A stretch of 64,000 bases of DNA from Candidatus Hadarchaeota archaeon (GCA_964514945.1 CAZESD010000001.1:40246-104245), one strand, 5' to 3'. Positions 25,659 to 56,548 are shown, numbered from the stretch's first letter. Notes: generated by a model from the letters alone, not told the origin. A program made the numbers and translations.

Positions 25659-26474
25659 TCAACCCCGTGTATCACCGTAACTTATCAATTTTATTTTTCT
25701 ATTTTTTATTATTCGTTTAATCCTTTTGCTGGTTAACGCCTTGGTTTCTGCCGCTCTGTGGGCGGCCACATGTTTAAGTTCACTAGGATCAACCGCTTTC
25801 ATCGCTCTCATTTCAGGGGTATCCAGCCCCGGATGGTTGCCAATTAGCCAGAGACCGGGGGTAAGTTTCTTAAGAACACCTACTAAGACCTTTTCTTTCT
25901 TTAGAGGTGAAACATCATAGGTGGGGAACCATTCTCCACGTTTTTCTCCCAAATCGCCAGAGATGGGTAATTTGTACTCTGCGGCAAGCTTCTTTACAAT
26001 CGCCTTCAGTTCTGGGGAAAATTTTGCCACGTGCATATGATTAGATAAATGTGAGATATTTACGCCTTTTTTCAACGCTAGTTCGATTTGAGCCCTAAGC
26101 TCTTTTTCGACTTCAACCAGCTTCGGTCTAGCCGCCAAGAAGTACGGCTTACTCGGAAAGAAATGACCATCGTTATCAACTAAACTAGGTACTTCAGCTA
26201 CTGGCAGTACTGGCCCCCACGAGTAAAACTGCCATTCGCTGGTCAGAACCAAGTGCAATCCAATATCAAGCTTTGGATTTTTTCTGGCTATCTCGACTGC
26301 TTCATTGAACCAAGGGGGTGTAACCATTATCTCAGCTGAAGTTAAAATGCCCTCCTTATACACTTTTTCAAAAGCTAAATTGACACTGTGGCAAAAGCCC
26401 AAATCGTCACACCTGACGATAAGCTTGATTTCATCGCTAGAGTTTTCGGCTTCAGCGCCGCCGTCGCTATCCAA
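25659..26474 (-). CDS. YdjC/ChbG-family carbohydrate (chitooligosaccharide-type) deacetylase
   Basis: 'LIVRCDDLGFCHSVNLAF' and 'IGLHLVLTSEW' match YdjC motifs. Start placed at TTG 26474, 5 nt after GGAGGTGAT; the track start GTG 26483 lies inside the SD. Confidence 0.8.
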   Translation of the reverse strand: MDSDGGAEAENSSDEIKLIVRCDDLGFCHSVNLAFEKVYKEGILTSAEIMVTPPWFNEAVEIARKNPKLDIGLHLVLTSEWQFYSWGPVLPVAEVPSLVDNDGHFFPSKPYFLAARPKLVEVEKELRAQIELALKKGVNISHLSNHMHVAKFSPELKAIVKKLAAEYKLPISGDLGEKRGEWFPTYDVSPLKKEKVLVGVLKKLTPGLWLIGNHPGLDTPEMRAMKAVDPSELKHVAAHRAAETKALTSKRIKRIIKNRKIKLISYGDTRG

Positions 26475-26610
26475 AGGTATCACCTCCTTAAACCTGTTGT
26501 CAAAGTGCTATATGTCTTTCAATCCTATGGTAGTCTTGTTAAATTTAATAAGATTCACTCATAAAAATTAGTAGCTAGAGTGGAGGAAGGTAAAAATCCA
26601 GAGGTGAAAA
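26449..26610 (-). repeat. Promoter/SD-leader cassette, copy A (upstream of the ydjC-like gene)
   Basis: Shares three blocks with 31151-31333. (1) The SD/start block 'GGTTTAAGGAGGTGATAC.TTTGGATA.CGAC' (reverse strand). (2) The TATA block 'TTATTAAATTTAA'. (3) An upstream block with 'AGGT(A/G)AAA' twice, at 26588-26595 and 26602-26609. Confidence 0.7.
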
Positions 26611-26672
26611 ACAATCTAAAACCCCTCGCCGATTTGTGTTTGGAAAATTCGCCGTGTTTCGAGAAGGGACTT

Positions 26673-28433
26673 CTAAACTTTTTCTCTCGAACACACCGCC
26701 ACGAAAAACCAAATCGCATGAACAATCCACTGCTCGGTCCATCGCCAGGCATATTTGTAAGAATTCTTTAATTTATAGTTTATAGATTCCGGTAGAAAAT
26801 CTATATCTCTTTCATCGTGAAAACCGGCCGTTATGCCGTTAACGATACCGCCTGGGGCATTTTGAAATCTCGGACGGAAATCTGGGGGATTTCTACCGAA
26901 GCCGTGGAGCATGCAAACACCAAAAGGATTCAGTCCCAGTACCCAGTTCAACTGGTTTCTGGCGTACTCCTCCAACTTCTCAGAAAAGGCCTCATCCCCT
27001 TTGAAAAGGACGCTTGCCAGGTATGCTGCGGTAGCTAACGAGGCGATGCGTCCGTTTTCCCCCTGCCACCAGTAACCGGACTCGTTTTCGTGCGGCATGA
27101 AAAAGGATGAGCGTGGTTTCTTGTCTACAGGTTTCACATACTGCCTTGCGTACCCAAATGGATTCACAACCTCTTCCGTAATCTTCAGTTCAAATTCCAG
27201 AGAAGCTCTGATTTTCTCTAACACCTCCTCTCTCAACGGTGAATCTTTGTCGACTTCCAGAAATCTGATCAGCGATGCAACGGGGAAGCCCGCCTCAGTG
27301 GCATGGTAATATGGCCGCTCCCCCTTGTCATCCGCCCTCCACCAACCCGAGTAATTAGAATCTGAAGATAGCCTATCCAAGAGAGATCGGGCCCGTCTTC
27401 TAGCAGCCAGAACAAATCTCTCTTCTCCTGTGGCGTTAAACAATTCTGATGCCGCTAACAACGCGCAATAATCATCTATAATATTTTCTTTCCCATCTGG
27501 CAGATACTCAATATTTTTTTCTTCCAGGTGATCAAAAGCTCTAATAGCTCCTTCCAAGTATTCCTCACTTTTGTAATCAGAGGACTCTCCCAAGGTACTT
27601 GCCCTCGCCAGCGCGGCGATTGCAACGCCACCCCCCTGTCTGTAGCCCACCTTGTACTTATCAGTTTTTTTATAGGAAATAGGCCCCCAGTTTATAAGTG
27701 CGCATATCTCCCTCGGGCCGGTCCTCTTGAACTGTTCGTCAAATACACTCAGGTAAAAGTAACCCTCCTTGTCCAGTATGCGCATCAGAAAATCTGCTCC
27801 ATAGAGGGCCTCTTCAATCAAACGAACCTTCAAATTTCCACCGAGGGGATGCTTGTACCCCAGCAATCTTTCTAGGGAATCGATCAATCCCCACACAACA
27901 AGGGGCGTCTGCTGGGTGTTCATATAGCGATTGAGGTGGCTAAGGTGTTTACTTACATCCCCGGCAGCATCGTACCAGCCACCGTGCACGTCCACCCGGT
28001 CTTTCCTTGACCCAACGAATTGCACGCTGTGGTCCGCCCTGTCGTACTTACCGGAACACCGCTGAGATTTAAAGTAAAATAGGATGTCTGATAAAGTTTT
28101 TTTCTGTAGAATATTTTCAGCAATTTCGAACGATCTTGAGCGGTATTCTTTCTCCCCCGCATTTATCAAAATATAGAAAAAACCAGTACCCTCAAAGTCC
28201 GAAAAGTCCAAGGTCCAGAAATTCCAGTCCTTCCAACTATCTACGTGTCCAGCGCGATGTATCTTTCCTTTGAAAACAGCCTTCCCGCTATCTTCATCTA
28301 CGAGACTGAACTTCGTTAACCCTGAATCCTCTGGTGCCTCAATCACCGCTCTCTTTTTGCCGGCTCTTTCATATCCGACATAATCTACAAAGATTTTCAA
28401 TTGATCCCTCCAGTCTAGGTTTTCTATCTGCAA
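26673..28433 (-). CDS. GH9-family glycoside hydrolase with N-terminal Ig-like domain; cytoplasmic (no signal peptide)
   Basis: 586 aa. 'VDVHGGWYDAAGDVSKH' (the GH9 GGWYDAGD region) and C-terminal 'NWVLGLNPFGVCMLHGFG...GGIVNG'. The N-terminus is hydrophilic. Confidence 0.78.
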   Translation of the reverse strand: MQIENLDWRDQLKIFVDYVGYERAGKKRAVIEAPEDSGLTKFSLVDEDSGKAVFKGKIHRAGHVDSWKDWNFWTLDFSDFEGTGFFYILINAGEKEYRSRSFEIAENILQKKTLSDILFYFKSQRCSGKYDRADHSVQFVGSRKDRVDVHGGWYDAAGDVSKHLSHLNRYMNTQQTPLVVWGLIDSLERLLGYKHPLGGNLKVRLIEEALYGADFLMRILDKEGYFYLSVFDEQFKRTGPREICALINWGPISYKKTDKYKVGYRQGGGVAIAALARASTLGESSDYKSEEYLEGAIRAFDHLEEKNIEYLPDGKENIIDDYCALLAASELFNATGEERFVLAARRRARSLLDRLSSDSNYSGWWRADDKGERPYYHATEAGFPVASLIRFLEVDKDSPLREEVLEKIRASLEFELKITEEVVNPFGYARQYVKPVDKKPRSSFFMPHENESGYWWQGENGRIASLATAAYLASVLFKGDEAFSEKLEEYARNQLNWVLGLNPFGVCMLHGFGRNPPDFRPRFQNAPGGIVNGITAGFHDERDIDFLPESINYKLKNSYKYAWRWTEQWIVHAIWFFVAVCSREKV

Positions 28434-28509
28434 TCTCTTTCAGCATTTTTCATCTGTGTTTCATTTGGATTTGTACGTATTTAGCCCTTGCTCCACGCTT
28501 TGGTTAGGC

Positions 28510-29160
28510 GCTCAGCCAACGTTTCAGCTGGATCGAGCCCCCGCTGCTTGTAGCAGAATGTTGCAGGCTGCCGATCGGGAGACTAGAAGAGGCAACTGGC
28601 AGTTTCGAAACAAATTGATTGGAAGATTGATAGAACTCAAAGGAAAAACCCTTGGGATAATTGGGTTCGGGAAGATAGGTCGAAGAGTCGCAGAGATCGC
28701 ATCTAGTATCGGGATGAATGTCAAATACTATGACCCGTATGTTGTGGAACGGGGGGGAAGTTCAGAAAAGTGGGGTTTGAAGAGCTCCTCAGAACGTCGG
28801 ATGTCATATCGGTTCACGTCCCATTGACAAGTGGAACTCACCATCTGATCAGTGAAAGAGAGTTGGGGCTCATGAAGAACTCCGTTATACTCGTCAACAC
28901 ATCGGGGGGTTATAGACGAAAAGGCACTTGTTAAGTTTTTAAAGAGCGGAAAAATTCACGCTTTCGAAACCGATGTGTTTGAGGTGGAACCACCAGACCC
29001 GAGTTCCCCTCTTTTTACATTCGAAAATACGGTAATCAAGCCGCACATGGCAGCCTTCACGGGGGGGCATTTCACGATATGTCGGTGATCGCAGCGGAAG
29101 AAACGGCAAAAATATTGAAGGGCCTGCCCCCCAACCCGCTTTTTATCCTTAATAGGGGGG
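28510..29160 (+). pseudogene. D-isomer-specific 2-hydroxyacid dehydrogenase, N-terminally truncated and frameshifted three times
   Basis: NAD-domain 'GKTLGIIGFGKIGRRVAEIA', then 'FEELLRTSDVISVHVPLTSGTHHLI...ILVNTSGG', 'VIDEKALVKFLKSGKIHAFETDVFEVEPP...KPHMAAFTGG', 'AFHDMSVIAAEETAKILKGLPPNP'. These lie in successive frames. The shifts fall at G-runs 28751-57, 28904-09 and 29061-67. The N-terminal substrate domain is absent. Confidence 0.8.
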
Positions 29161-29363: not shown

Positions 29364-30398
29364 TTAAGCAGGATCTCTTATTAACGGACAAGTCGCACAG
29401 CGTGGTCCTCCCTGAGCTTTCTCTAACTCCAGCATGTCATGTTTGATCACCTCGATCCCTTGTTTCTCAAGGGTCTTCGTGGTCTTATTTGATATATGTG
29501 ATGCAACAATCTTCCCTGGTCTAAGGACTAATACATTCACGTCGAAAACACCTGCGCCAGTTGGGATGATTTTGATCCCCAACTCCTTCAACTTTTCACG
29601 GAAACTATATGGCACGTAGGGATTGACTAAAGCTAAGTTTTTTCCAACCATACCTAAAAAGCCATCGATGTGAGTCTGATGGTCTGGAATGTCCATCCGG
29701 ATCAAATTTATTCCGAGAACCCTCAGTACTTCTTCAACTTGTCGTGCTCCCTCCTCGTTTGTTGCAGCACTGCGCCCTACAACTGCATTTTCCTCATTAA
29801 GAAGCGCAAAATTGCCTCCTTCAAAAACTCCTGTGCCATGTATGGTACGTAGTATCGGCACTCCTAAAGATGCTATTTTCTTAGCTACAAGACTTTCTTC
29901 TCCTCTTCTATATTTCTGGGCCATCCGGCATATTATTACTCCACCTTTAACAGCAACAGCATAATCTCTACTCATACAAGCCATAACATGACTACCAGGG
30001 GATACCGTCCCTTCCAGATTTATTACTTCAATTCCCTCATTTCGCATGATTTCTACTAACCTATCATGTTCTTCTTGCATTTTAGGTACATCAGGTAAAT
30101 CCTTACCGGGCCAAAGCCAATTACCTTCTGGATCATATCTCCATCCTACTTTTTCATCGTAAGGACTGTCCGCAGTAACAAATTTAAATTCCTCCTCTCT
30201 TGGTCTGTGAACTAAAACCACTCTTAATATACCTACCTCGTCTGATACCCCCCACTTTCTACCCCAGACCTGTTTTAGCATTTCTTCATCTTCGAACGGT
30301 GGCTCTGGTTTACTCCCAAATATTCCCTTCTCCATCCATAATCGCCAATTAGGATTAGAAGAATCCCAAGCAAAAGCACCTTTTTCTTCACTCATCAT
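29364..30398 (-). CDS. Amidinotransferase / arginine-deiminase-superfamily (guanidino-group-modifying) enzyme
   Basis: 344 aa. C-terminal nucleophile motif 'GGPRCATCPLIR'; 'FEGGNF' and 'HIDGFLGMV' are typical of the pentein fold. AGGAGGT SD. Confidence 0.65.
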   Translation of the reverse strand: MMSEEKGAFAWDSSNPNWRLWMEKGIFGSKPEPPFEDEEMLKQVWGRKWGVSDEVGILRVVLVHRPREEEFKFVTADSPYDEKVGWRYDPEGNWLWPGKDLPDVPKMQEEHDRLVEIMRNEGIEVINLEGTVSPGSHVMACMSRDYAVAVKGGVIICRMAQKYRRGEESLVAKKIASLGVPILRTIHGTGVFEGGNFALLNEENAVVGRSAATNEEGARQVEEVLRVLGINLIRMDIPDHQTHIDGFLGMVGKNLALVNPYVPYSFREKLKELGIKIIPTGAGVFDVNVLVLRPGKIVASHISNKTTKTLEKQGIEVIKHDMLELEKAQGGPRCATCPLIRDPA

Positions 30399-30522: not shown

Positions 30523-30966
30523 CTATAGTTTAAATTCCTCTATCCGTATTTTCTCCTGTCCGCCCATCCTTATCCTTTTTCCTATATCCGCGATTTTTTC
30601 AACTTCCCCTATCTCGGCGAAGACGTTGACGTCGACCGTTTGATCGACAGACTTTCGGGGCCGGCTCTTTCCGTAAAATATGCAGAAGGCGGTATGTCCT
30701 TTGCCCAACGAGGGCAGGGCCTGCGGGGATATGACCGCAACGTCTCCCGGTTTCACTTCGTTGGTTGAGTTTTCATACTCCAGCCTCCCAGAAATGGGAA
30801 ATTCGTTAAAAAATATTTCCTCCCCCGCCCACATGGCGTGAACCACCTTGTTCTCGACCGGCAAAGAAGCCAAAACCGCTCTGCACGTTCTGGGCGCCCT
30901 GTCTTCCAGTAATGTTGCGGTCACGCTCCCGCCGCGTTCGAACCTCAGCAATATCCGCCTAGCCAA
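30523..30966 (-). CDS. DUF3830-like cyclophilin-fold protein
   Basis: 147 aa, TTG start. 'ATLLEDRAPRTCRAVLASLP...HAMWAGEEIF...ENST...PGDVAV' follows the pattern I recall for DUF3830. Confidence 0.55.
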   Translation of the reverse strand: MARRILLRFERGGSVTATLLEDRAPRTCRAVLASLPVENKVVHAMWAGEEIFFNEFPISGRLEYENSTNEVKPGDVAVISPQALPSLGKGHTAFCIFYGKSRPRKSVDQTVDVNVFAEIGEVEKIADIGKRIRMGGQEKIRIEEFKL

Positions 30967-30977: not shown

Positions 30978-31178
30978 TCATATCATGTGCTCTGTCCTTA
31001 TTATAATCTGGTCCTGGAGGGCACGGGGGAGCTGGGTAAAACGGGCCTTCTTGATGAATGCACTTGCTCGCCTAAGGCGGCTGGGATCCATCTCTACGTC
31101 CTCTGGATTACCATGCCTCAGAACACATTCGACAGACATTCTAGAGTTTTTGGCCTCAGCTTCATCGTCGTTATCCAA
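30978..31178 (-). pseudogene. Duplicated 5' fragment of the beta-lactamase-like serine hydrolase gene (66-codon dead-end ORF)
   Basis: 'LDNDDEAEAKNSRMSVECVLRHGNPEDVEMDPSRLRRASAFIKKA' is nearly identical to the N-terminus of 39547..40710. At the nt level, 31046-31160 versus 40576-40690 differ at only a few positions. After that it diverges and stops 12 nt before the DUF3830 start. Confidence 0.7.
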
Positions 31179-31333
31179 AAGTATCACCTCCTTAAACCTC
31201 CCAGTTGAATATCTCGATGAGCGCGTCCTAGGAATTATGTTAGTAGTAGCTCGGTTCTTTAAATTTAATAAGATATCCACTCTTATAAAAATTTAGCTAG
31301 GTTGGAGGAAGGTGAAAATATACAGAGGTGAAA
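31151..31333 (-). repeat. Promoter/SD-leader cassette, copy B
   Basis: Same SD/start block, TATA block (31258-31272) and upstream 'AGGTGAAA' x2 (31310-31317, 31326-31333) as copy A. Confidence 0.7.
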
Positions 31334-31541: not shown

Positions 31542-32249
31542 ATGGCGAAAGAAAAAAAGGAAGGTCTGGTAAAGGACCTAGCCGAGAAAGCGAAACGAGG
31601 AGAGCTCAAACCGGAAGGGGCAAAGAAAGAGGTATTGAGAAGAGGGCTTCGCTACGTACAGTATAAACGGGGTTCATATAAATTCAAATACCACTTAATC
31701 TCCCCTCTTTTGGCGATACTCGGAACCGTTCTTTGCGTCCTCCCCTTTATAGCAAAGCAAACGGGATGGGGAGAGTTGAGTTCCTTCGCCCAGCTATCTT
31801 CGATAGATTTTCCGTTAATCGTGAAGATTTTGGTATTTGCCTTTTTCATTACCCTCTTTACTGTAGGGAGGTATGCATCACATTTAAGAAAGAAGAAGGG
31901 GGGCACCAGCGACAGACGCGAAACTATAATCTTCATCAGGGAAGGCCCGTACAAGATTATGCGACACCCAGAAGAACTCCCGTTCGCACTGATCCTTCTT
32001 TTTGTCACGATTGTCCTTAGTGGGGGGATCCCCTTTACCGTCCTTTCGATAATAGGCAACGTTCTTTTTTTCATCGGTTTTTACTACGATGCTAAGGGGG
32101 AAGACGAATTTAACGTGCTAAAATGGGGGAACGCGTACAGGCGGTATCAGAGGGAAGTCCCAATGTTTAACTTCATCTTGGGAATATGGAGATTGGCTGG
32201 GGGAAAAGAAAGGCAAAAAAGCGGGAAATTCGTTAAGGACAGCTCATAG
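31542..32249 (+). CDS. ICMT/PEMT-like membrane methyltransferase-family protein
   Basis: 235 aa with several TM segments. 'EGPYKIMRHPEE' resembles the GPY..VRHP.Y motif of isoprenylcysteine carboxyl methyltransferase-like proteins. Confidence 0.6.
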   Translation: MAKEKKEGLVKDLAEKAKRGELKPEGAKKEVLRRGLRYVQYKRGSYKFKYHLISPLLAILGTVLCVLPFIAKQTGWGELSSFAQLSSIDFPLIVKILVFAFFITLFTVGRYASHLRKKKGGTSDRRETIIFIREGPYKIMRHPEELPFALILLFVTIVLSGGIPFTVLSIIGNVLFFIGFYYDAKGEDEFNVLKWGNAYRRYQREVPMFNFILGIWRLAGGKERQKSGKFVKDSS

Positions 32250-35371: not shown

Positions 35372-35373
35372 CT

Positions 35374-48630: not shown

Positions 48631-48843
48631 TTAGTCGCCCGTAATAGTTTTTCCAATTTTTTTATCAAAAAAGTAGGCTTTATCCCAGTCAAAGCCTATC
48701 CACGCGTTTTCACCTATCTCTTGTTTGAAATTCAATCCAGTTCTCAATTTTAAGTAAGTATTTCCCATCTCTACAGTAACTAACTTTTCATTCTTTTCCA
48801 CTCTCTTATTTTGTATCCAGAACTCAATGCTCTCTCTTGCCAC
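48631..48843 (-). pseudogene. Isolated C-terminal TOBE-domain fragment of a MalK/UgpC-type sugar ABC ATPase
   Basis: 70 aa. '...LVTVEMGNTYLKLRTG...ENAWIGFDWDKAYFFDKKIGKTI' matches only the regulatory C-terminal domain. No NBD lies upstream, and it overlaps the nagB upstream region. Confidence 0.55.
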
Positions 48844-48942
48844 TATTGTGAATGGGGAGTGTTCTACGAAAGAACTTTATTTAAATATCGGGCACGATTT
48901 GTTTATGCGAGGTTTGGAAAAGAAAACGGGGGTCGAAACAAC

Positions 48943-49683
48943 ATGCCGATTGAAGTTTTCACCACAAAGGACTATGATGAGCTCAGCAAGAGGGCGGCTG
49001 AGATCATCGCAGATGCCATAAGAAACAAACCGAACTCGGTTCTTGGATTGGCCACCGGAAGCACCCCCATTGGCTGCTACCGCGAGTTCGTCCGCATGCA
49101 TAAGGAGGAAGGACTTGACTTCTCAAGGGTTGTGACATTCAACCTAGACGAGTATATTGGGTTACCACCAACCCACCCCCAAAGCTACCGATATTTCATG
49201 AATGAAAACCTCTTCAACCATGTAAACATCAAAATAGAGAATACGCATGTTCCGAATGGTCTATCAGACGATCTCCAGAGGACTTGCAAGGAGTTTGAGG
49301 AAGCCATTAAGAAGTTTGGTGGAATCGACCTCCAACTCCTAGGTATAGGAACCACCGGACACATAGCATTCAATGAGCCAGGTTCACTATTCGACTCTAG
49401 AACTAGGGTTGTGAACGTCTCGGAGCAAACGATAAAAGATAATGCGCGATTTTTCAAATCCATTGATGAGGTGCCCCGTCAAGCAATCTCCATGGGAACT
49501 GGCACCATCATGGAAGCGAGGAAAATCATTCTCCTAGCAAGCGGTGGGGGAAAGGCGGATGCGGTTGCCAAGTCAGTTAAGGGACCAGTAACAGAAGAGG
49601 TACCTGCGTCGATTCTCCAGACTCACCCTAACTGTACATTTATTATTGACGAAGCAGCGGCTTCTAAACTTGAAAGTATTTAA
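48943..49683 (+). CDS. nagB: Glucosamine-6-phosphate deaminase
   Basis: ATG 48943 inside ORF 48811..49683. 'VLGLATGSTPIG', 'TFNLDEYIGL', 'DLQLLGIGTTGHIAFNEPGS', 'AISMGTGTIMEARKIILLASG'. Confidence 0.9.
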   Translation: MPIEVFTTKDYDELSKRAAEIIADAIRNKPNSVLGLATGSTPIGCYREFVRMHKEEGLDFSRVVTFNLDEYIGLPPTHPQSYRYFMNENLFNHVNIKIENTHVPNGLSDDLQRTCKEFEEAIKKFGGIDLQLLGIGTTGHIAFNEPGSLFDSRTRVVNVSEQTIKDNARFFKSIDEVPRQAISMGTGTIMEARKIILLASGGGKADAVAKSVKGPVTEEVPASILQTHPNCTFIIDEAAASKLESI

Positions 49684-49723: not shown

Positions 49724-50929
49724 ATGTTGAAGGGTAATTTAATAATAGGCCAGTCCGGCGGTCCGACCTGCGTAATCAACGCTAGTTTATGTGGTGTAAT
49801 TCAAGAAGCAAAGAAACACAGGGGAATAGAGGAAATACACGGAATGCGTTTCGGCATCGAGGGGTTCATGAAGGAGAACATCGTCAATCTCCGGTATGAA
49901 GACGAGGAGACTATTGATGGGCTGCGGGACACCCCATCCGCCGCTTTGGGATCCTCCCGTCACAAACTCAAGAATGATGATCTCTCTCGAGTCCTTGAGG
50001 TGCTCAAAAAATATGATATCAGGTATTTTTTTATGATCGGCGGCGACGACACCATGGATACGATTCGCAGGGTTGAAGAATATTGCGCCAGAGAGGGATA
50101 TGAAATCGTCTGTGTGGGAATACCCAAAACTGTAGACAACGACCTTTTTGGTACAGACCATGCTCCGGGCTTTCCAACAGCGGCGAGATTTATAGCCCTC
50201 TCGGTAAAACAGGGGGGAATTTTAGCCAGGGACATGCAAAAGGTGGACCAGTTTGTCATATATCAATCAATCGGTAGGGACGCCGGCTGGCTTGCTGCCT
50301 CGGCGGCCGTTGCTAAAGAAAAAGGATCGGACGCCCCCCATCTTATCATAATTCCAGAGAGACCGCTGAACAAGGAAAAATTCCTAGTAGAGGTCAAAAA
50401 ATTTTACGACAAATACGGCTTTGTATCCATAGTATGTGGCGAAGGAATCACCTGGGAGGACGGCACCCCCATCTCAGGATCTGTCATCAAGGACAAATTC
50501 GGAAATATCGAATTTGGGGCGATGGGTGGAACCTCCGCAGCTATGATTCTGCACAGAATAATCTCCTCTGAATTCGGTTGGCGCGGGGAATTTCAAATTA
50601 CCGAATCTCTGCCGATGTGCTGCGCAGATAGGATGGTTGAAGTAGATCGCGAGGAGGCTTATCTCGTCGGCGCGCAGGCTGTAAAATTAGCCGTTGAAGG
50701 AAAATCTGGCGTAATGGTCACCTTGGAAAGAAAGAGTAACCGTCCTTATCTATGCCAAACTGGGACGATCTCTTTGGAAGAAGTGGCAATGAAAACCAAA
50801 CCGATGCCGGACAATTATATTTCTAGCGACGGCTTTTTCGTTACCAGTAAATTTCTTGATTACATAAAACCTTTGGTCGGGGAAATTCCTCATTATGCTG
50901 AATTGAAAGCCAAAGCAGTAACAAAATGA
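49724..50929 (+). CDS. pfp: PfkA-family 6-phosphofructokinase with PPi-type signature residues
   Basis: 401 aa. 'IIGQSGGPTCVINAS', 'FFMIGGDDT' (Asp where ATP-PFKs have Gly), 'VGIPKTVDNDL' (Lys). Confidence 0.8.
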   Translation: MLKGNLIIGQSGGPTCVINASLCGVIQEAKKHRGIEEIHGMRFGIEGFMKENIVNLRYEDEETIDGLRDTPSAALGSSRHKLKNDDLSRVLEVLKKYDIRYFFMIGGDDTMDTIRRVEEYCAREGYEIVCVGIPKTVDNDLFGTDHAPGFPTAARFIALSVKQGGILARDMQKVDQFVIYQSIGRDAGWLAASAAVAKEKGSDAPHLIIIPERPLNKEKFLVEVKKFYDKYGFVSIVCGEGITWEDGTPISGSVIKDKFGNIEFGAMGGTSAAMILHRIISSEFGWRGEFQITESLPMCCADRMVEVDREEAYLVGAQAVKLAVEGKSGVMVTLERKSNRPYLCQTGTISLEEVAMKTKPMPDNYISSDGFFVTSKFLDYIKPLVGEIPHYAELKAKAVTK

Positions 50930-50946: not shown

Positions 50947-51909
50947 ATGACAATGTCAAATTATTCTGTTGAAATAGGAGATAAATTTGACAAACTAATA
51001 AACAAAAAGAAAAATTGCCAAGTAGTTGTCAAAAGATTGGGGGCCGAGGTAATCAGTTATCGGGTGTGGGATAAAGATAACAAAATAACGCTTCCTTTAC
51101 TGTGGAATGACAATAACGATTCTCCTCCGCCAGAAGGGGGATGGAAAAATCATGCTACGGTCCTTTTTCCTCACGTAGGAGGGCTTAAAAACAATGAGAG
51201 TTGGCTTGGCAATATAAAAATCACCAGCCGGGGCAATCACGGTTTTGCTCGTCATTCCACTTTTAAAGCAGTCGATTATGGTAACGACAACTCCGCGCGC
51301 ATTCACTACCGCCTCAAGGCAAACGATGAGACAAGAAGATACTATCCTTTCAATTTCAGGTTGGATATCATTTACTCTTTGAGGGGGAATGAATTTTCTG
51401 CTGAGTTTGAAGTCACCAACATGGAAGAGGGGAGAGATATTTTTTTCTCCCTAGGTTGGCACCCCGGCTTTAGTACATCTTTTCCTGACCTCGGGGGCAA
51501 AAAAGAGGACTGGCAGATAATTTTTAAAAAAGGGAGATATCGGCGTTACCTCAACAACGAGAATTGCAGATTAACCGGAGAAACTGAAGATTTGGACATA
51601 GCCGGCTCTTTTAGCTGGAGTGAAGAAGAACTTGAAAGTACGATCATGTTGGAAATAGAAAAGAAGGAACTCCGCAATTGTGAATTCTACAACCCCAAAA
51701 TCAAAAGGGGAGTGAAGATCAATTTTGAGGAATTTCCCTTTTTGGCTATCTGGTCGGAAGTGGGCCGCAAATTTATTTGTCTGGAACCTTGTCAGGGGCT
51801 CGATGATCGTGAAATGCAGGAAAGTTTTGATCAAAAGGTGGGTATTGTAAGACTTGGAGCTTCAGCAAGCAAAAAATGGCGAGCGGATATTAGACCTATA
51901 ATTTCCTGA
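50947..51909 (+). CDS. Aldose 1-epimerase (galactose mutarotase-like) family protein
   Basis: 320 aa. 'FPHVGGL', 'GNHGFARHSTF', 'SLGWHPGF'. Confidence 0.7.
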   Translation: MTMSNYSVEIGDKFDKLINKKKNCQVVVKRLGAEVISYRVWDKDNKITLPLLWNDNNDSPPPEGGWKNHATVLFPHVGGLKNNESWLGNIKITSRGNHGFARHSTFKAVDYGNDNSARIHYRLKANDETRRYYPFNFRLDIIYSLRGNEFSAEFEVTNMEEGRDIFFSLGWHPGFSTSFPDLGGKKEDWQIIFKKGRYRRYLNNENCRLTGETEDLDIAGSFSWSEEELESTIMLEIEKKELRNCEFYNPKIKRGVKINFEEFPFLAIWSEVGRKFICLEPCQGLDDREMQESFDQKVGIVRLGASASKKWRADIRPIIS

Positions 51910-52106: not shown

Positions 52107-54299
52107 TCAAACCTGTTCGATTTTCAGTACGCAAACCTCTTGCGGTTCTAATTCTCGCTTAATTCGGAGGCCATTATCGTAGCTCCAATTTACCTCTGTC
52201 TGGTTGGGTAGGTCCAAAATCCTATATTTTCCTTCGGGGAGTCGCAAGCGAAAACTTACACTAGATTTTTTGTCATCATGGTTGAAGCCAAACAAGAACG
52301 TGTATCCTGCACCTTCCAATATCAGCCCTTCTACTTTTCCCCCATCTATATCCACTAGGGGCTCGACACCGGCCCATTTAAAGAGACCTTTCAGAAACTT
52401 TCCGTTTTCCTCAGCTCGAACTTTTTCATAAACCCCGCTGATCAACGAGCCTATCAATACCGCCTTGCCTTTGCCATAGCTGTTGATTATGATTGCCGGC
52501 AAACCGTTTTCAAAACGCGCCAAGATTTTTGCAGTATCCTTCAATGGTTCTAGGGCCTCTTCATAACCCGCTCCTGAGATCTCTATTTTTCCTGATAAAG
52601 ACGACATCTCTTGCACCGACTCTACCCACAGTTTCAGCTTTTGCCTCTCGAGTATCCATTTCTCCCTGCAACCGAAAACCTCGTGCAGACCAAGACCCGG
52701 TATCACTTCAGAACATTGCCCTTTTTCATCGCTCCACCCGGGTCGGACTTCCGCCACCAATTTCCCGCCCTGACGAACAAATTCCTTCACACCTTCAGCG
52801 ATTTCAGATGTCATCATGATGGAGAAAGGCATAAAGATGAGTTTGTAATTTTTCACGTTCCCCTTGGCAAAATCATTGATGTGGATGAAATCTACTGGAA
52901 TGTTCTCCTCCAATAGGGCACGATAGATACCTGTCAACGACGAAGATACAATATTTACAATCTCGTCGGCTCGCTCCCTAGAACAAGCCAGCATGATGTA
53001 GGAATAGATGTTGTATACGATACCAACTTCTGCCTGTGGGGGCTTGGCGTTTAAAAATAAATCCATGTTCTGGTTGACGATCCTCGCAACTTTTCCAGCT
53101 GCCCGAGCCCGTTCTGTTATGCTCCCATCCAAATTTATCAAGCCGAATCCCGAGGTCTCATACCCGCAGCTCATCGGGTACCAGGCATAGAAGTTCAAAC
53201 CTTTTGTCCCCCTGGCTATTGCGCTCCAAGCCCACATTTGTACATCTTGGGGGGTAACCGGCTCTCCAAAGCGAATTCCCTCTACGCCATTTCCGCCTTG
53301 AAGTTCCCCAAGCCAATAATCCTTTCCCTGAGTGTCGGAAGAAGATCGGGTTGCATCTAAAGCTACTCCACGCCATGCGGAATCAAGCGGCATACTTTCG
53401 CCGATGTGCTTTGGGTAGAGCGATGTTCCCCAAACATCAACCTGCTTGGCCATCTCCCAATCATCTGGACTACCATACCAATTTAGAGGTGGGATGAAAA
53501 CTGAACTGATGGCGGAGTGGCTGGAAACCACATGATCGGGATCGATTTTTTTTACTGTCTGGACTCGCCACTTCAAATCCTCTGCCAGCTTTTCTATGCT
53601 GAAGAGCTGCCAATCCACAAGGTCCCGCCAAGTTGATAACGTCACATACTTCGGTGGAATTACCTCATTCCAGTCTCGATAGACACGATACCAAGATCTG
53701 TTCAGGCTACTTATGTCGCCGTAACGTTTTTCCAACCAACGACGAAATCGCTCTTGGCTATGACGGCAATAACAGACCCAACCAACCGCTCTAGGAAGCC
53801 AGTCGAGCCAAGTCCAACTGACCACATGCGGCTCACTCCAAACATCCCAGCCGTAAAAATTTGGATGGTCCTTCACTCGCTCGGCCACTTTTTGCATGAA
53901 GAGCTCTGCTTCTTTTCTGACATCCGGATGATCGCAACAAAATCCCGGTGAGGCCTGCGAGTCGATCACGTCACCGCTTTGTGCTTGAAAGCGTGAATCG
54001 GGAAAAAGAGAGGCGATCCAGTTGGGCGCCGAGTCTAGGTACAGCTGGATGATTACCTTTAATTCGTTTTTCTCTGCCAAATCCATAAGACGGTCTATGA
54101 AGCCCAAATTCCAAACCCCGGGTTCGGGCTCTGCGGTTGCCCAATCAACCCAGTATTTCACGGCGTTGAAACCGAGTTTTTTCATGTTTTCGATGTCTCT
54201 CTGAGCAATTTTGTAGCTTTCTTCAGTGGATGGGGCGAGCATTGGCGCACGTGCTTTACCTTCGCCGTACCACACAGAAATGGGAAAGAAATCTGCCAT
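52107..54299 (-). CDS. GH42/GH35-like glycoside hydrolase (beta-galactosidase / exo-beta-D-glucosaminidase GlmA-like); cytoplasmic
   Basis: 730 aa. TIM-barrel N-domain 'GFNAVKYWVDWATAEPEPGVWN...VIIQLYLDSAPNW...HPNFYGWDVWSEP'. Central trimerisation-like domain 'FVRQGGKLVAEVRPG'. No signal peptide. Confidence 0.72.
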   Translation of the reverse strand: MADFFPISVWYGEGKARAPMLAPSTEESYKIAQRDIENMKKLGFNAVKYWVDWATAEPEPGVWNLGFIDRLMDLAEKNELKVIIQLYLDSAPNWIASLFPDSRFQAQSGDVIDSQASPGFCCDHPDVRKEAELFMQKVAERVKDHPNFYGWDVWSEPHVVSWTWLDWLPRAVGWVCYCRHSQERFRRWLEKRYGDISSLNRSWYRVYRDWNEVIPPKYVTLSTWRDLVDWQLFSIEKLAEDLKWRVQTVKKIDPDHVVSSHSAISSVFIPPLNWYGSPDDWEMAKQVDVWGTSLYPKHIGESMPLDSAWRGVALDATRSSSDTQGKDYWLGELQGGNGVEGIRFGEPVTPQDVQMWAWSAIARGTKGLNFYAWYPMSCGYETSGFGLINLDGSITERARAAGKVARIVNQNMDLFLNAKPPQAEVGIVYNIYSYIMLACSRERADEIVNIVSSSLTGIYRALLEENIPVDFIHINDFAKGNVKNYKLIFMPFSIMMTSEIAEGVKEFVRQGGKLVAEVRPGWSDEKGQCSEVIPGLGLHEVFGCREKWILERQKLKLWVESVQEMSSLSGKIEISGAGYEEALEPLKDTAKILARFENGLPAIIINSYGKGKAVLIGSLISGVYEKVRAEENGKFLKGLFKWAGVEPLVDIDGGKVEGLILEGAGYTFLFGFNHDDKKSSVSFRLRLPEGKYRILDLPNQTEVNWSYDNGLRIKRELEPQEVCVLKIEQV

Positions 54300-54307: not shown

Positions 54308-55057
54308 TTACCTTTCTTTCATCATTTTTCTGTAAGCTTCAAACACTTCTTCATTATGAGTCTTGGGTATTTCTTCAATATTTGGTGAGACAAAAACTTT
54401 TAGAGGTACGCCTTTATCAACTAGGATTTTTGCCACCTCCGCCACCAAAGCCATGGCGATGACAACTCCAGCCACCGTGGAGCCGGCCGCAAATGGCTCT
54501 CGCTGCCCGTCTATTTTCACCAGTGCATCCTCCAGCGGCACACAATTGTCAATCGTGATATCCGCTATATCGCATAGCCTATTTCCGCGGTGAGTGACGG
54601 AAGCTTTCTTCTGATTTTCCATCGAAGTAACCGCGACCACGAAGAGACCTGCTTTCTTGGCCCCAAGTGCCATCTCAACAGGCACAGCATTGATGCCCCC
54701 GTGAGAGAAAACCAACATGACGTCTTTGTCCTTAAGCTTATTACGTTTGAGAAGTATGCTGGCATAGCCCTTTTGACGCTCCAGCCAGAGCAATTCCTGA
54801 ACTCCCCCTGGACCGATTATATTGAACCACATTAGCCGCGGATCCAGCAACGGATGAAAGCCGACATAGCTGCCATAGCGGGGGAAGATATCGAGGACTG
54901 GTATCACTGAATGTCCGCTACCAAATAGATGGATAACTCCTCCTTGTGCAATGGAATTCGCCATGACCCGAGCGGCTTTTTTAATATGCTCGGATTGAGT
55001 TAAACGAATTTTTTTCAGAATCTCCTTGATAGCCTCAAAGTATTGGTCAGCTGTCAT
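54308..55057 (-). CDS. SIS-domain protein, UPF0309 family (paralog 2; function unknown)
   Basis: 249 aa. 'GVIHLFGSGHSVIPVLDIF', 'FSHGGINAVPVEMALGAKKAGLFVVAVTS', 'THRGNRL'. Its stop is 8 nt before the GH42/35-like start, so they form an operon. Confidence 0.75.
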   Translation of the reverse strand: MTADQYFEAIKEILKKIRLTQSEHIKKAARVMANSIAQGGVIHLFGSGHSVIPVLDIFPRYGSYVGFHPLLDPRLMWFNIIGPGGVQELLWLERQKGYASILLKRNKLKDKDVMLVFSHGGINAVPVEMALGAKKAGLFVVAVTSMENQKKASVTHRGNRLCDIADITIDNCVPLEDALVKIDGQREPFAAGSTVAGVVIAMALVAEVAKILVDKGVPLKVFVSPNIEEIPKTHNEEVFEAYRKMMKER

Positions 55058-55390
55058 GATCTACCCCCCAAATTTAAGTTCCCCAGTAGTTTACTGTCTA
55101 AGTTATAAAAAGTTTGTGCACTACAGGACTTTGCGCATAAAAATCAAACTTATTTTAAATTTTATTTCAAATTTATGCTTCATAAGCTCTAATTGAAAAG
55201 CGATTCCGGCAGAAATATTTTTAATAAGCAGGAGCCAACTCCAACAAGGATATAAAAGTGAAAATAGATTACTTGAGCCCTCTATGGGCAAGCTCTAACA
55301 TGCCAAGCGGAGAAAAAATGAATGATTCATATGTAAAGAAATATGGGCACGACAGGATTCACCATATGTAAATTTTATGGGGGTGATCAA

Positions 55391-56548
55391 TTGAGGTCTT
55401 TTTCCTTATCCGCTGGCGAGATACTTACTCCTTATAAAAAAATAAAAAATGGCGTTGTCACGATAGAGAACGGCATAATAACGGACGTCAGGGAGCGGGG
55501 AACCGAAAAAATCTCTTCAGATTTCTCCGAATCGATAATTGTTCCCGGTTTTATAGATGTACATATCCACGGGATCGCAGGTGTAGACGTGATGGACGCC
55601 ACGGTTGAGTCAATGGATAAGATGAGAAAATCATTAGTAAATCATGGCGTAACTGCCTTTTGTCCCACTTCGGATACGGCTCCTCTCGATCATATAAAGA
55701 AGGCTTTGAAAACTATTAATGTTAGTAAAAAATCCAATGCTAGAGCGCTTGGAGCACACTTGGAGGGCCCCTTCCTAAGCCCAGAAAAACCCGGCGCGAT
55801 GATAGCCGAAGATTTACGAACGCCGAACATAGATGAGTTTGATGCACTCTGGAATACATCAAAAAAATCCATTAAGTTAATAACGATAGCTCCCGAAGTA
55901 CCCGGAGCAATCAAACTCATAAAACATGCATCCTCACTAGGCGTTACAGTATCCCTTGGTCATTCAAACGCCACATACGAAGAAACATTAGCTGGCATAA
56001 GGGCGGGAGCAACTCATGCTACTCATTTGTTTAATGCCATGCGTGCGTATCATCATAGAGAACCGGGGATTTTAGGGGCTGTTTTGGAAAATCCCAAAGT
56101 TTCGGTGGAGCTTATTATGGATTTTGTTCATGTGCATCCATCAATAACCCGGTTAGTCTGCAAGTTAAAACCAAAAGATAAAGTTATCCTCATAACGGAT
56201 GCTATACGGGCCACAGATATGCCTGATGGCGTATATGAGAACAGATATGAATTGCATGTGAAGAATGGCGAAGTTAGGCTTCCCGATGGTACGCTAGCTG
56301 GAAGCACTTTAACTTTAGATAAAGCCTTACGCAATTTAGTATTTGAACTTGAGATATCACTTAAGGACGCCGTAACCATGATGACAGTAAACCCCGCCAA
56401 GGACATAAGAGTCGACGATGAAGTCGGAAGCATCGAAGTTGGAAAGCGTGCGGACCTTGTGATTTTAGATAAAAACTTAAATGTAATGAAGACGATTGTC
56501 GGTGGCGAGATTGTATTTGAGAACTTGAAACCCAAGAGGTTTAGATAA
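55391..56548 (+). CDS. nagA: N-acetylglucosamine-6-phosphate deacetylase
   Basis: ORF 55343..56548. TTG 55391 is preferred (GGGGGTGAT 4 nt upstream). 'VPGFIDVHIHG', 'GAHLEGPFLS', 'SLGHSNATY', 'THLFNAM', 'LITDAIRA'. Confidence 0.85.
   Translation: MRSFSLSAGEILTPYKKIKNGVVTIENGIITDVRERGTEKISSDFSESIIVPGFIDVHIHGIAGVDVMDATVESMDKMRKSLVNHGVTAFCPTSDTAPLDHIKKALKTINVSKKSNARALGAHLEGPFLSPEKPGAMIAEDLRTPNIDEFDALWNTSKKSIKLITIAPEVPGAIKLIKHASSLGVTVSLGHSNATYEETLAGIRAGATHATHLFNAMRAYHHREPGILGAVLENPKVSVELIMDFVHVHPSITRLVCKLKPKDKVILITDAIRATDMPDGVYENRYELHVKNGEVRLPDGTLAGSTLTLDKALRNLVFELEISLKDAVTMMTVNPAKDIRVDDEVGSIEVGKRADLVILDKNLNVMKTIVGGEIVFENLKPKRFR

Follow-up and report, generated by a model that had tools for sequence, protein, structure and literature searches.

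A number of described systems for amino-sugar catabolism have features in common with the locus reported here, a low-GC (guanine plus cytosine) island in a 64,000-nucleotide (nt) stretch of a Candidatus Hadarchaeota genome (GCA_964514945.1, CAZESD010000001.1:40246-104245; the whole stretch is called the window below), which probably serves the catabolism of amino-sugar oligosaccharides. In the chitin pathway of Thermococcus kodakarensis (ChiA, Dac, GlmA, an ADP-dependent kinase and GlmD), the disaccharide is imported, deacetylated before a glucosamine (GlcN)-specific cleavage, phosphorylated, and deaminated to fructose-6-phosphate. The same logic can be read in the window, but with no homologous enzyme at any step. 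The deacetylases belong to the YdjC family and to carbohydrate esterase family 4 (CE4) instead of the PIG-L family of Dac, and the glycosidases to glycoside hydrolase family 9 (GH9) and to a GH42-fold group with a Ser-Glu motif, where GlmA is a GH35 enzyme with Asp-Glu. The kinase is a ROK protein instead of an ADP-dependent one, the deaminase is NagB instead of the double-SIS protein GlmD, and NagA is present in the window. Among the window open reading frames (ORFs) Pfam found neither a PIG-L Dac nor a PF01380 double-SIS GlmD, no search having been aimed at the ADP-dependent kinase, and no GH18 or GH19 chitinase domain was detected in any ORF scanned, as had been foreseen.

Two further systems act on chito-oligosaccharides. 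The chb operon of Vibrio cholerae (VC0611-VC0620) combines, like the window, a family-5 binding protein, a Dpp-type importer and a homologous GH9 enzyme (VC0615); beyond these it contains a GH94 phosphorylase, a GH20 hexosaminidase, a phosphomutase and a glucosamine kinase from a different family, and it is not known to have a YdjC protein. The GH94, GH20, Vibrio-type glucosamine kinase and phosphomutase families did not turn up in the window scans. In the enterobacterial chb system (ChbG with ChbF), as would be the case in the window, mono-deacetylation by a YdjC-family enzyme enables a glycosidase that is blocked by the acetylated sugar. The enterobacterial substrate is phosphorylated by the phosphotransferase system (PTS) and cleaved by a GH4 phospho-beta-glucosidase, whereas the window relies on ATP-binding cassette (ABC) uptake and GH9 cleavage, and its YdjC protein scores under the ChbG cut-off.

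The bacterial clusters for N-acetylmuramic acid (MurNAc), murR/murQ-murP-yfeW of Escherichia coli and murQRP-amiE-nagZ-namZ of Bacillus subtilis, resemble the window in having a PBP4B/AmiE-like hydrolase, a SIS-superfamily enzyme encoded beside a sugar kinase, NagA/NagB further down the pathway and a route for D-lactate, which in the window is a predicted one. They differ in that NagZ, NamZ, AnmK, MurP and MurQ were not found in the window (all by Pfam; NamZ, GH3 and AnmK also by tblastn with proteins of two loci described below, L008 and L090), where the SIS proteins are of the UPF0309 family (PF13580). To our knowledge archaea have no MurNAc-containing peptidoglycan, so that such a route in an archaeal host would mean scavenging rather than recycling. 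The UPF0309/SIS_2 family and fold are those of NagS (SCO4393) of Streptomycetaceae; the window proteins are distant from it and lack the nagS-dmdR1 synteny, although one of them, the a-type, keeps residues essential in NagS. Finally, the LctBCD lactate dehydrogenase/electron-transfer flavoprotein (Etf) complex of the anaerobe Acetobacterium woodii is encoded by overlapping genes in the order etfB-etfA-GlcD-like. The window contains an operon of the same order, with no adjacent lactate permease or racemase, between the ROK and SIS_2 genes. Within the library searched, there was no work on archaeal MurNAc catabolism or on UPF0309 outside NagS, and nothing relevant on the structure 8JQE, on Hadesarchaea with chitin, or on archaeal MurQ/AnmK.

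On balance, we consider it probable that the island serves the uptake of oligosaccharides of beta-linked hexosamines and their cytoplasmic breakdown along two branches, one for chito-oligosaccharides and a predicted one for MurNAc from peptidoglycan. A sugar-type Dpp/Opp ABC importer would bring in the oligosaccharide. In the chitin branch, YdjC, possibly with CE4, would take off one acetyl group, the GH9 exo-glucosaminidase would free GlcN, the monomers would be phosphorylated by ROK, and NagA and NagB would yield fructose-6-phosphate, which a pyrophosphate (PPi)-dependent phosphofructokinase (PFK) would convert to fructose-1,6-bisphosphate. In the MurNAc branch, the PBP4B/AmiE-like hydrolase would strip the peptide off muropeptides, the GH42-fold Ser-Glu glycosidase would split the amino-sugar disaccharide, and ROK would again phosphorylate the sugars. 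SIS_2 would then remove the 3-O-lactyl group by beta-elimination, the type of reaction carried out by the related NagS and MurQ, to give N-acetylglucosamine (GlcNAc)-6-phosphate and D-lactate, and the latter would be oxidised to pyruvate by the GlcD-like dehydrogenase with EtfAB. The substrates of NagA, NagB and PFK follow from curated models and that of GH9 from close homology; those of the other enzymes, and the coupling of the genes as one regulon, are predictions from sequence. Three observations led to the proposal of the MurNAc branch: the Etf/GlcD-like operon, a hydrolase resembling PBP4B and AmiE, and the neighbourhoods in which SIS_2 relatives occur. The original prediction, made by a model from the sequence alone, had listed the other pathway genes correctly, had overlooked the EtfB-EtfA-GlcD-like operon and had named peptidoglycan only as an assay substrate.

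Genes of the window were taken from an ORF list annotated with Pfam, and equivalog calls were made by the curated cut-offs of NCBIfam; coordinates are collected in Table 1. All ORFs named in the original prediction were recovered within a few codons of their assigned positions, including the embedded enzymes (two SIS proteins, Amidohydro_2, beta-lactamase-fold hydrolase, LLM-class oxidoreductase, CE4 and pentein-fold protein). The NagB ORF opens at 48811, with the true ATG at 48943 as called before; the YdjC start moved from 26474 to 26483 and the NagA start from 55391 to 55343.

The final steps of the route, NagA, NagB and the PPi-type PFK, all pass their curated cut-offs, which bears out the view of an amino-sugar catabolic island ending in these three enzymes. 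The PFK carries MIGGDDTMDT and PKTVDNDL; GGDD and PKT are the PPi-type residues of the PFK family. The genes of NagB, PFK and an aldose-1-epimerase-family protein, possibly a hexose or hexose-phosphate mutarotase, form one operon with intergenic gaps of 40 and 17 nt. NagA is divergent from a unit consisting of the b-type SIS_2 gene (SIS2_b) and the GH42-fold gene. This arrangement is repeated in three of the related loci compared below, namely a Hadarchaeota contig (L005) and two Asgard loci (L004 and L009).

The GH9 enzyme links the chitin branch to characterised proteins. Its residues 15-583 align with residues 5-564 of 3H7L (VP2484) at 552 bits and E=2e-164, and 5DGQ (PBPRA0520) and 6GDT (VC0615, E=2e-159) are likewise matched over the full length (range E=1e-159 to 1e-164), while endo-acting GH9 enzymes match only at E~1e-4. 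The alignment with the VP2484 group takes in the Ig-like N-domain and the long loops closing the -2 subsite, the loops being as defined in PMC6096475. DAaGD and the Glu of WRWtEQW align with DAsGD and WRWgEQW of 3H7L; the catalytic residues of VC0615 are D140, D144 and E546, and enzymes of its group were reported to hydrolyse (GlcN)2 rapidly and cellobiose slowly and to leave (GlcNAc)2 uncleaved (PMC6096475). By this close homology the window protein is a predicted cytoplasmic member of the exo-beta-D-glucosaminidase group; the earlier analysis had pointed out that such enzymes exist in GH9. Identity to its homologues levels off at 50-55%, in Spirochaetales and in haloarchaea, the chitin-named Natrarchaeobius chitinivorans among them. 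As the group cleaves (GlcN)2 and not (GlcNAc)2, and YdjC is the next gene downstream, a deacetylase-first logic is plausible. To this extent the parallel drawn before with Thermococcus stands, without Dac, GlmA and GlmD themselves.

The YdjC protein matches 8JQE (1e-40), 2I5I, 2E67 and the ChbG structure 7VI8 in the Protein Data Bank (PDB). Its earlier designation as a ChbG/YdjC deacetylase was right as to the family and too narrow as to ChbG, since the ChbG equivalog model NF002559 gives 101 bits against a cut-off of 227 and covers only the N-terminal ~150 residues. The YdjC-family enzyme KpChbG converts (GlcNAc)2 to GlcNAc-GlcN (PMC9402603), and by analogy the window protein is proposed to be a mono-deacetylase of (GlcNAc)2 or a related disaccharide. 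A hydropathy scan found no N-terminal hydrophobic segment in GH9, GH42 or YdjC, in agreement with the glycosidases having been described as lacking signal peptides. The motifs of the CE4 protein are circularly permuted: HxxxH stands close to the N-terminus and the TFDD-type motif close to the C-terminus, and the CE4 protein of L005 (6881-7672) has them in the same order.

For uptake, the binding-protein gene is divergent from the permease and ATPase genes (34310-38053). The protein has a signal-like N-terminus (residues 19-37) and, after an acidic linker, a C-terminal membrane helix (603-621) by a simple hydropathy scan. Its solved relatives are 2O7I/3I5O, 4JSD, 4PFT/4PFU, 1VR5 and 1ZTY, the best (E=7e-54 to 1e-35) being from Thermotoga, where they are annotated as 'oligopeptide' and mannoside binding proteins; their ligands are cellobiose, laminarin and mannosides. 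The Vibrio protein that binds chitin oligosaccharides is matched at 2e-14. These relatives place the protein in the sugar-binding branch of family 5 and support sugar over peptide uptake, with no particular sugar singled out, and the earlier description of a sugar-type, C-terminally anchored binding protein agrees with both results.

The second glycosidase of the island has the GH42 fold. Its best PDB sequence match reaches 1.5e-39, and its predicted model (predicted local distance difference test, pLDDT, 89) is related in Foldseek to GH42 beta-galactosidases, a GH42 arabinopyranosidase and a GH164 beta-mannosidase at template-modelling (TM) scores of 0.70-0.81 (0.72-0.81 for the GH42 structures alone) and 17-22% identity. 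The W-S-E-P-H acid/base and G-E-L-Q nucleophile regions are invariant in 23 aligned members (43-84% identity), as are the catalytic E156 and E332 in the alignment of the subfamily, and W-S-E-P-H aligns with the NNE of 9TA3, giving Ser-Glu instead of Asn-Glu. Asn-Glu is kept in all GH35/GH42 beta-galactosidases, where the Asn binds the C2-OH of galactose, while GlmA has Asp-Glu with the Asp binding C2-NH3+, and in the GH2 glucosaminidase CsxA a Ser precedes the acid/base residue (PMC6566704). Because Ser replaces the C2-OH-binding Asn, the database name 'beta-galactosidase' is unsafe for this protein. The residue pattern makes it likely that the subfamily acts on a sugar modified at C2, and the window enzyme is proposed to be a cytoplasmic exo-hexosaminidase or exo-glucosaminidase. 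It had been called 'GH42/35-like', of which the GH42 part was borne out by the fold. A GH35 or GlmA identity was rejected, with NF041127 at 29 bits against a cut-off of 1500 and the motif Ser-Glu in place of Asp-Glu; neither the PDB sequence search nor the list of the 50 best Foldseek matches contained a GlmA chain. Compared with GH42 beta-galactosidases, an insertion of ~12 residues (residues 157-173) directly follows the acid/base Glu, and the same residues are the sole part of the model with pLDDT below 50, which may represent a mobile active-site loop.

Alternatively, the GH42-fold enzyme would be an ordinary beta-galactosidase for Gal-GlcNAc disaccharides such as lacto-N-biose or N-acetyllactosamine (LacNAc), the GlcNAc half being salvaged through ROK, NagA and NagB and the epimerase serving as galactose mutarotase. 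The Pfam GH42 score of 170 bits, the fold and the names given to homologues in databases agree with this explanation, as do the convergence of the aldose-1-epimerase-family gene on GH42 and a weak LBP_M match. We hold it to be very unlikely in view of the invariant Ser at the Asn position and of the low identity (17-22%) to characterised GH42 enzymes. Galactokinase, GalT and GalE are found neither in the window nor among the common neighbours of 89 GH42 loci, and the epimerase gene is missing from L005 and from the Asgard loci.

The proposed exo-hexosaminidase is widespread, with at least 570 loci of its subfamily in GTDB species representatives, in Acidobacteriota, Chloroflexota, Thermotogota, Bacillota, Halobacteria, Bathyarchaeia, Hadarchaeota and Asgard archaea. 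Neighbourhood statistics were compiled for 89 of these loci, the ORF calling in compared loci being crude. A b-type SIS_2 gene (median identity 55%) was present in 43 and a ROK kinase in 39, followed by a GntR/UTRA regulator in 20; CUT1 ABC or major facilitator superfamily (MFS) transporters and TonB-dependent receptors were other common neighbours. NagA was found in 8 loci and NagB in 5, the latter on archaeal contigs, and a PIG-L deacetylase in 6 by clustering and 8 by tblastn. In the window, SIS2_b lies 8 nt upstream of GH42, and ROK, which falls under every NCBIfam cut-off, is displaced by ~8 kb from both. The canonical ROK zinc motif is CxCGxxGCxE; the window protein by eye lacks it and reads ...DEGCFESLCSG..., and the ROK of a Thermotogae trio lacks the motif as well.

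The SIS2_b-GH42-ROK trio is compact in Asgard archaea (L004, Heimdallarchaeota CP070695.1; L009 and L012, Promethearchaeota; L013, Hodarchaeota), and the Heimdall- and Promethearchaeota have the arrangement NagA / SIS_2-GH42-ROK. The identities of SIS2_b/GH42/ROK to the window proteins are 85/77/76% in the Heimdallarchaeote and 81/78/76% in a second comparison, the GH42-adjacent Asgard ROK proteins being 76-79% identical to that of the window, but NagA reaches only 39-42%. It follows that the trio moved between Asgard archaea and Hadarchaeota as a cassette, and the high identities suggest that this inter-phylum transfer was recent. The GC content of the trio, 0.39 in Asgard regions of ~0.36 and 0.45-0.48 in the window, fits a lower-GC donor. 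The Hadarchaeal interval between GH42 and ROK holds NagB, PFK, the epimerase-family gene, a second SIS_2, the Etf/dehydrogenase genes and a non-coding stretch, and this filling is read as functional accretion.

The two SIS proteins, which had been listed among embedded enzymes of no clear role, are conserved core partners of the system and distant relatives of NagS, as the 89 GH42 loci and the a-type contexts below demonstrate. Both SIS2_a and SIS2_b belong to UPF0309/PRK02947 and are 32% identical to each other. SIS2_a matches 3CVJ (2e-53) and NagS 9EOL (3e-40) in the PDB; the bit scores of the two proteins to 9EOL are 141 and 104. NagS, the sole characterised UPF0309 member, dehydrates GlcNAc-6-phosphate at C3 and was described as related to MurQ; it binds GlcNAc-6-phosphate and ManNAc-6P, the 6-phosphate of N-acetylmannosamine, but not GlcN-6-phosphate, and its H53, R64, E94 and D179 are essential (PMC12680351). 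Counterparts of NagS H53, R64, S91, E94, S119, S121 and N228 are kept in SIS2_a, with an Asp at both candidate positions for D179, which does not map unambiguously. SIS2_b keeps the His, Arg, Glu and Asn counterparts, those of S91 and S121 being changed. By analogy, SIS2_a is proposed to be a MurNAc-6-phosphate etherase-like lyase. Orthology with NagS, which its authors delimited by at least 58.7% identity, occurrence in Streptomycetaceae and nagS-dmdR1 synteny (PMC12680351), was rejected for the window proteins on their 141 and 104 bits, their archaeal host and their Etf or GH42 neighbours.

The contexts of a-type relatives were surveyed in 83 loci. NagA-like genes occur in 27 of them and NagB in 4; BcrAD_BadFG kinases (N-acetylhexosamine/MurK-type) lie directly upstream of SIS_2 in 6, FGGY kinases are found in 6, and mannose-type PTS components in 8-17, depending on the component. 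In L096 a single-strand operon contains SIS_2 (61% identical), NagA, NagB, a Fer4-CCG protein and a GlcD-like dehydrogenase, which by sequence would cover the conversion of a 3-O-(2-hydroxyacyl)-GlcNAc-6-phosphate to fructose-6-phosphate together with the dehydrogenase for the hydroxyacid. The simplest substrate fitting this gene set is MurNAc-6-phosphate, giving D-lactate. Its electron module differs from EtfAB, and L096 is an independent repeat of the SIS_2-dehydrogenase association seen in the window, L005 and L092-L094. In L090 (ENA ERZ27296342 k141_616663), a SIS_2 gene (67% identical) follows AnmK at a distance of 33 nt, and a NagA-like gene is close by; in L101 a permease, SIS_2, a BcrAD kinase and NagA are encoded by overlapping genes. 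L090 encodes Sec61-beta, deoxyhypusine synthase and a Tsr3-like protein, by which the contig looks archaeal; its SIS_2 cluster is named after an Elusimicrobiota metagenome-assembled genome (MAG). An anhydro-MurNAc kinase in an archaeon is unusual. Tandem SIS_2 paralogues are frequent in a-type loci. In L106-L108, L119, L120, L128, L136, L141 and others, two to four of them occur with a mannose-type PTS, and these clusters also carry a neutral-ceramidase-like protein, CutC, a HAD phosphatase, a GFO/IDH/MocA oxidoreductase and a NagA-like gene.

The EtfB, EtfA and GlcD-like genes overlap by 4 nt each and are divergent from SIS2_a, an adjacency kept in L005, L092, L093 and L094; their products are proposed from sequence to form a D-lactate dehydrogenase/Etf complex. 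The serine hydrolase has the beta-lactamase fold, which is also that of AmiE. Its top NCBIfam model is PBP4B/YfeW (205 bits against a cut-off of 385), and it is 39% identical over its full length to a protein encoded between a NagZ-type GH3 gene and AnmK in the Thermotogae cluster L008. Besides the ROK-SIS_2-GH42 trio, this cluster contains NamZ, a BcrAD kinase and a dipeptide-epimerase-like MR_MLE gene, and in its 22 kb there is no SIS gene other than the SIS_2 of the trio. In E. coli, PBP4B is the product of the gene that comes third in the murQ-murP operon; in B. subtilis, the murQRP-amiE-nagZ cluster encodes AmiE, which is a MurNAc-L-Ala amidase (PMC5061867). The window hydrolase is, by analogy, a putative MurNAc-L-Ala amidase or D-peptidase.

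A 59-nt leader was found to precede YdjC, a relic ORF and the PBP4B/AmiE-like gene. It consists of a GGAGGTGA ribosome-binding site, a TTG start and ~13 acidic codons; the copies are 75-100% identical, all hold GGTTTAAGGAGGTGATA, and the pattern occurs three times in the window, where shuffled sequences give an expectation of 0.13. A TATA-like ATCTTATTAAATTTAA upstream of the YdjC leader (26539-26554) is common to the YdjC and relic copies. The sharing of the leader by the YdjC and hydrolase units hints at common control, and the leader could be a duplicated promoter-leader cassette. Of the relic, nt 31044-31198 are 90% identical to 40576-40730 (155 nt), and its 100-codon ORF is a duplication relic of the serine-hydrolase 5' end and not a gene.

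The main rival to the two-branch reading is a pure chitin/chitosan route with redundancy, along the lines of the original prediction. Here YdjC and CE4 would deacetylate, GH9 or the GH42-fold enzyme cleave, and ROK phosphorylate GlcN and GlcNAc; SIS_2 would be a third type of GlcN-6-phosphate deaminase/isomerase alongside NagA/NagB, and the Etf proteins and the serine hydrolase would be passengers. Much of the evidence given above could be accommodated: the GH9 homology with its neighbouring YdjC, the Ser-Glu motif reminiscent of CsxA, and the PIG-L deacetylases of six to eight trio loci, which parallel the Dac of Thermococcus. The trio would be self-sufficient for a GlcN dimer, the excess of NagA over NagB in a-type loci is expected if SIS_2 stands in for NagB, and the loci with mannose-type PTS, NagA-like and SIS genes resemble the aga system, in which AgaA occurs with AgaS. 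The AnmK-SIS_2 and kinase-SIS_2-NagA units would remain unexplained, L096 would have NagB beside SIS_2 and a 2-hydroxyacid dehydrogenase without a substrate, and the window would hold NagB plus two more deaminases. The failure of NagS to bind GlcN-6-phosphate and the leader common to the PBP4B/AmiE-like gene and YdjC also speak against the chitin-only route, which we regard as rather unlikely for the island, although the deaminase role may be true of the b-type alone, with the a-type as an etherase.

Several observations weigh against the two-branch reading itself. Most bacterial trio loci have no NagA, NagB or lactate dehydrogenase within 10 kb, and such loci fit a self-contained GlcN route, with SIS2_b as GlcN-6-phosphate deaminase, at least as well. 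In the a-type survey AnmK was found in only 1 of the 83 loci and a dehydrogenase in 3; the AnmK link rests with one contig and the dehydrogenase operon with one contig, both outside the Hadarchaeal lineage. Membership of SIS_2 in the MurQ family was rejected: the Pfam assignment is to SIS_2 (PF13580), the SIS model itself giving a weak partial match and no more, and the family profile retrieved no MurQ chain at E<=10, while GmhA and the MurR SIS domain were weakly matched. Since SIS_2 is not MurQ by sequence, any etherase activity would have been invented separately, by analogy, inside the SIS superfamily. For the Etf/GlcD-like genes, a general role in the metabolism of lactate or glycolate is possible, and the five canonical peptidoglycan-recycling proteins named at the outset were not found in the window. 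On the chitin side, the YdjC-GH9 adjacency is missing in a 78%-identical GH9 relative, and the solved proteins closest to the binding protein have neutral beta-glucans and mannans as ligands. The window CE4 is 51% identical to the L005 CE4 and reads TFDG against TFDD; the Asp residues of TFDD are metal-binding or catalytic, and one of them may have been lost in the window. Homologues of NagS at 26-36% identity were inactive on GlcNAc-6-phosphate, MurNAc-6-phosphate lying outside those assays (PMC12680351).

The organisation of the island also argues against one coherent system, as it consists of ~14 transcription units in alternating orientation with pseudogene relics and has no recognisable regulator gene among the window ORFs (Pfam). 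The island is a mosaic, not one designed system. Taken further, there would be no single system at all, only independently acquired sugar operons and decaying fragments at a recombination-prone spot between thrS and NMD3. The relics of a dehydrogenase, the serine-hydrolase 5' end and CE4 would fit, as would the variable gene content (L005 lacks PFK and the epimerase and has its CE4 elsewhere) and the unlinked genes for pentein-fold, DUF3830, F420-dependent LLM, Amidohydro_2, FucI-like and EamA proteins. This explanation is improbable, as at least 12 genes fall on consecutive steps of amino-sugar catabolism and, relative to the Asgard archaea, the insertions between GH42 and ROK are all amino-sugar, glycolytic, epimerase-family or 2-hydroxyacid genes. 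The leader common to two units and the preservation of the block at 84-94% protein identity beside NMD3 in another Hadarchaeon point the same way.

The borders of the island were set by composition and synteny. GC content is 0.446 over ~20.5-57.2 kb (~37 kb), compared with 0.538 and 0.517 in the flanks, and the drop at ~20.5 kb puts the onset 5 kb before 25659, where the original prediction (25659-56548) had it begin. The flanks encode archaeal-type ThrRS with an editing domain, RadA, an LSM protein, RLI, NMD3 and ilvBNCD, and the closest public relatives are Hadesarchaea/Hadarchaeota MAGs (GH42 identity 83-84%). L005 has the ilvDCNB-NMD3 flank in common with the window (NMD3 94% identical), followed by CE4, NagA, SIS_2-GH42, NagB, SIS_2, EtfB-EtfA-dehydrogenase and ROK, and it repeats the GC contrast (0.513 against 0.453). 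The island was therefore inherited inside the lineage, yet it is compositionally foreign. Block synteny was seen in the Hadarchaeota contigs L005, L011 and L092, and the core recurs in Asgard genomes, so that the clustering is not due to chance. The system had been described as a mixture of bacterial-type and archaeal-type parts; instead, the catabolic enzymes are all of bacterial type in an archaeal genome, probably as a result of horizontal acquisition. No tRNA gene was found at the island borders, no long flanking repeats by repeat search, and no integrase or transposase domains among the window ORFs scanned. An Rfam scan of the window gave no family at gathering score, the glmS ribozyme included. 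Counts from a bacterial promoter/terminator scan equalled the shuffled expectation, bacterial models being uninformative for an archaeon.

A broader interpretation is offered tentatively, as possible rather than probable. UPF0309 SIS_2 proteins beyond Streptomyces may be a second, non-MurQ-orthologous family of lyases for 3-O-substituted GlcNAc-6-phosphate, namely MurNAc-6-phosphate etherases, and the Ser-Glu GH42-fold enzymes a new family of cytoplasmic exo-hexosaminidases. With ROK they would form a three-gene cassette that hundreds of bacterial species carry and that has passed between Asgard archaea and Hadarchaeota, having accreted NagB, PPi-PFK and an Etf-coupled D-lactate dehydrogenase in the latter. 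NagS was reported in 2025, and its authors left the distant homologues without a substrate (PMC12680351). If the second-etherase reading is true, the UPF0309/SIS_2 family would gain a concrete function, and complete fermentation of the sugars of bacterial cell walls would be open to an organism that has no peptidoglycan of its own. A GH42-fold subfamily in at least 570 species-representative genomes, which has no C2-OH-binding motif, would have been misnamed beta-galactosidase throughout. Uncultured subsurface archaea (Hadarchaeota and relatives of Heimdall-, Hod- and Promethearchaeota) would share a bacterial-type cassette for amino-sugar necromass, that is, chitin and peptidoglycan, with a bearing on the diet of sediment archaea, and the history of the cassette would clearly exemplify transfer between phyla with later functional accretion. 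Should the reading fail, what remains is an ordinary, well-documented amino-sugar utilisation cluster. Of most interest in the island are the widespread, uncharacterised cassette of GH42(Ser-Glu), UPF0309 and ROK and the predicted action of UPF0309 on MurNAc-6-phosphate.

Table 1. Features of the island in window coordinates, with strand and the annotation on which each assignment is based.
Feature	Position (nt)	Strand	Basis
EamA transporter	20825-21682	-	Pfam
Fucose-isomerase-like aldose/ketose isomerase, 442 amino acids (aa)	21948-23276	-	Pfam
MFS transporter	23391-24608	+	Pfam
EamA transporter	24643-25536	+	Pfam
YdjC-family carbohydrate deacetylase	25659-26483	-	PF04794, 176 bits, profile positions 1-265 of 266
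59-nt leader, copy 1	26437-26495	-	repeat search, alignment
GH9 with CelD_N, putative exo-beta-D-glucosaminidase	26673-28433	-	PF00759
2-hydroxyacid dehydrogenase fragment, 123 aa	28456-28827	+	Pfam
Pentein/arginine-deiminase-fold protein	29364-30398	-	Pfam, NCBIfam
DUF3830 cyclophilin-like protein	30523-30966	-	Pfam, NCBIfam
Relic of serine-hydrolase 5' end with leader, 100-aa ORF	30978-31280	-	repeats, N-terminal peptide comparison
59-nt leader, copy 2	31141-31199	-	repeat search, alignment
Family-5 (Dpp/Opp-type) substrate-binding protein	32335-34209	-	PF00496
ABC importer permeases	34310-35371, 35374-36213	+	Pfam
ABC importer ATPases, oligo_HPY tail	36273-37262, 37229-38053	+	Pfam
Amidohydro_2 metal hydrolase, second gene of unit	38100-39461	-	weak matches
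PBP4B/AmiE-like beta-lactamase-fold serine hydrolase	39547-40743	-	PF00144, 230 bits
59-nt leader, copy 3	40673-40731	-	repeat search, alignment
F420-dependent LLM-class oxidoreductase	40878-41888	+	PF00296; TIGR03560, 277 (cut-off 231)
CE4 polysaccharide deacetylase	41956-42645	-	PF01522 in two stretches
ROK-family sugar kinase, no DNA-binding domain	42801-43829	+	PF00480, 169 bits
GlcD-like FAD-linked 2-hydroxyacid dehydrogenase	43888-45255	-	TIGR00387, 345 (cut-off 568)
EtfA	45252-46253	-	Pfam
EtfB	46250-47080	-	Pfam
SIS_2/UPF0309, a-type (SIS2_a)	47130-47906	+	NF002805, 308 (cut-off 135)
NagB	48943-49683	+	TIGR00502, 321 (cut-off 237)
PPi-dependent phosphofructokinase	49724-50929	+	NF010675, 431 (cut-off 273)
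Aldose-1-epimerase-family protein	50947-51909	+	Pfam
GH42-fold glycosidase with GH42M	52107-54299	-	PF02449, 170 bits; PF08532, 79 bits
SIS_2/UPF0309, b-type (SIS2_b)	54308-55057	-	NF002805, 270 (cut-off 135)
NagA, GlcNAc-6-phosphate deacetylase	55343-56548	+	TIGR00221, 354 bits (cut-off 226)
CE4 relic, last 38 codons	56683-56796	-	tblastn, 79% identity to L005, E=9e-15

The remaining parts of the island contribute little to the proposed route. The Amidohydro_2, pentein-fold, DUF3830, LLM and FucI-like genes had only weak or generic profile matches, which suggest no role. The top NCBIfam match of the FucI-like isomerase is sulfoquinovose isomerase at 164 bits against a cut-off of 700, and together with the MFS and the two EamA transporters (20825-25536) it may form a separate sugar module. 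The ORF at 28456-28827 covers only positions 6-72 of the 178-position D-2-hydroxyacid dehydrogenase NAD-binding domain and is probably a gene fragment. In L005 an intact CE4 gene lies between NagA and NMD3, at the site of the 38-codon relic of the window, where the 700-nt NagA-NMD3 gap is a deletion scar. Between SIS2_a and NagB, ~1 kb (47907-48942) contains no convincing gene; a MalK-type ATPase C-terminus suspected by eye in a 70-aa ORF (48631-48843, minus strand) was not confirmed, Pfam giving no match. The corresponding gap of L005 between SIS_2 and NagB contains two small unannotated ORFs. At 31542-32249 (plus strand) a 235-aa three-helix membrane protein with a weak isoprenylcysteine-methyltransferase-like match is encoded. 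It adjoins the family-5 binding protein here and in the archaeal locus L002 (18363-19040), where it is 84% identical, the binding proteins of the two loci being only ~26% identical.

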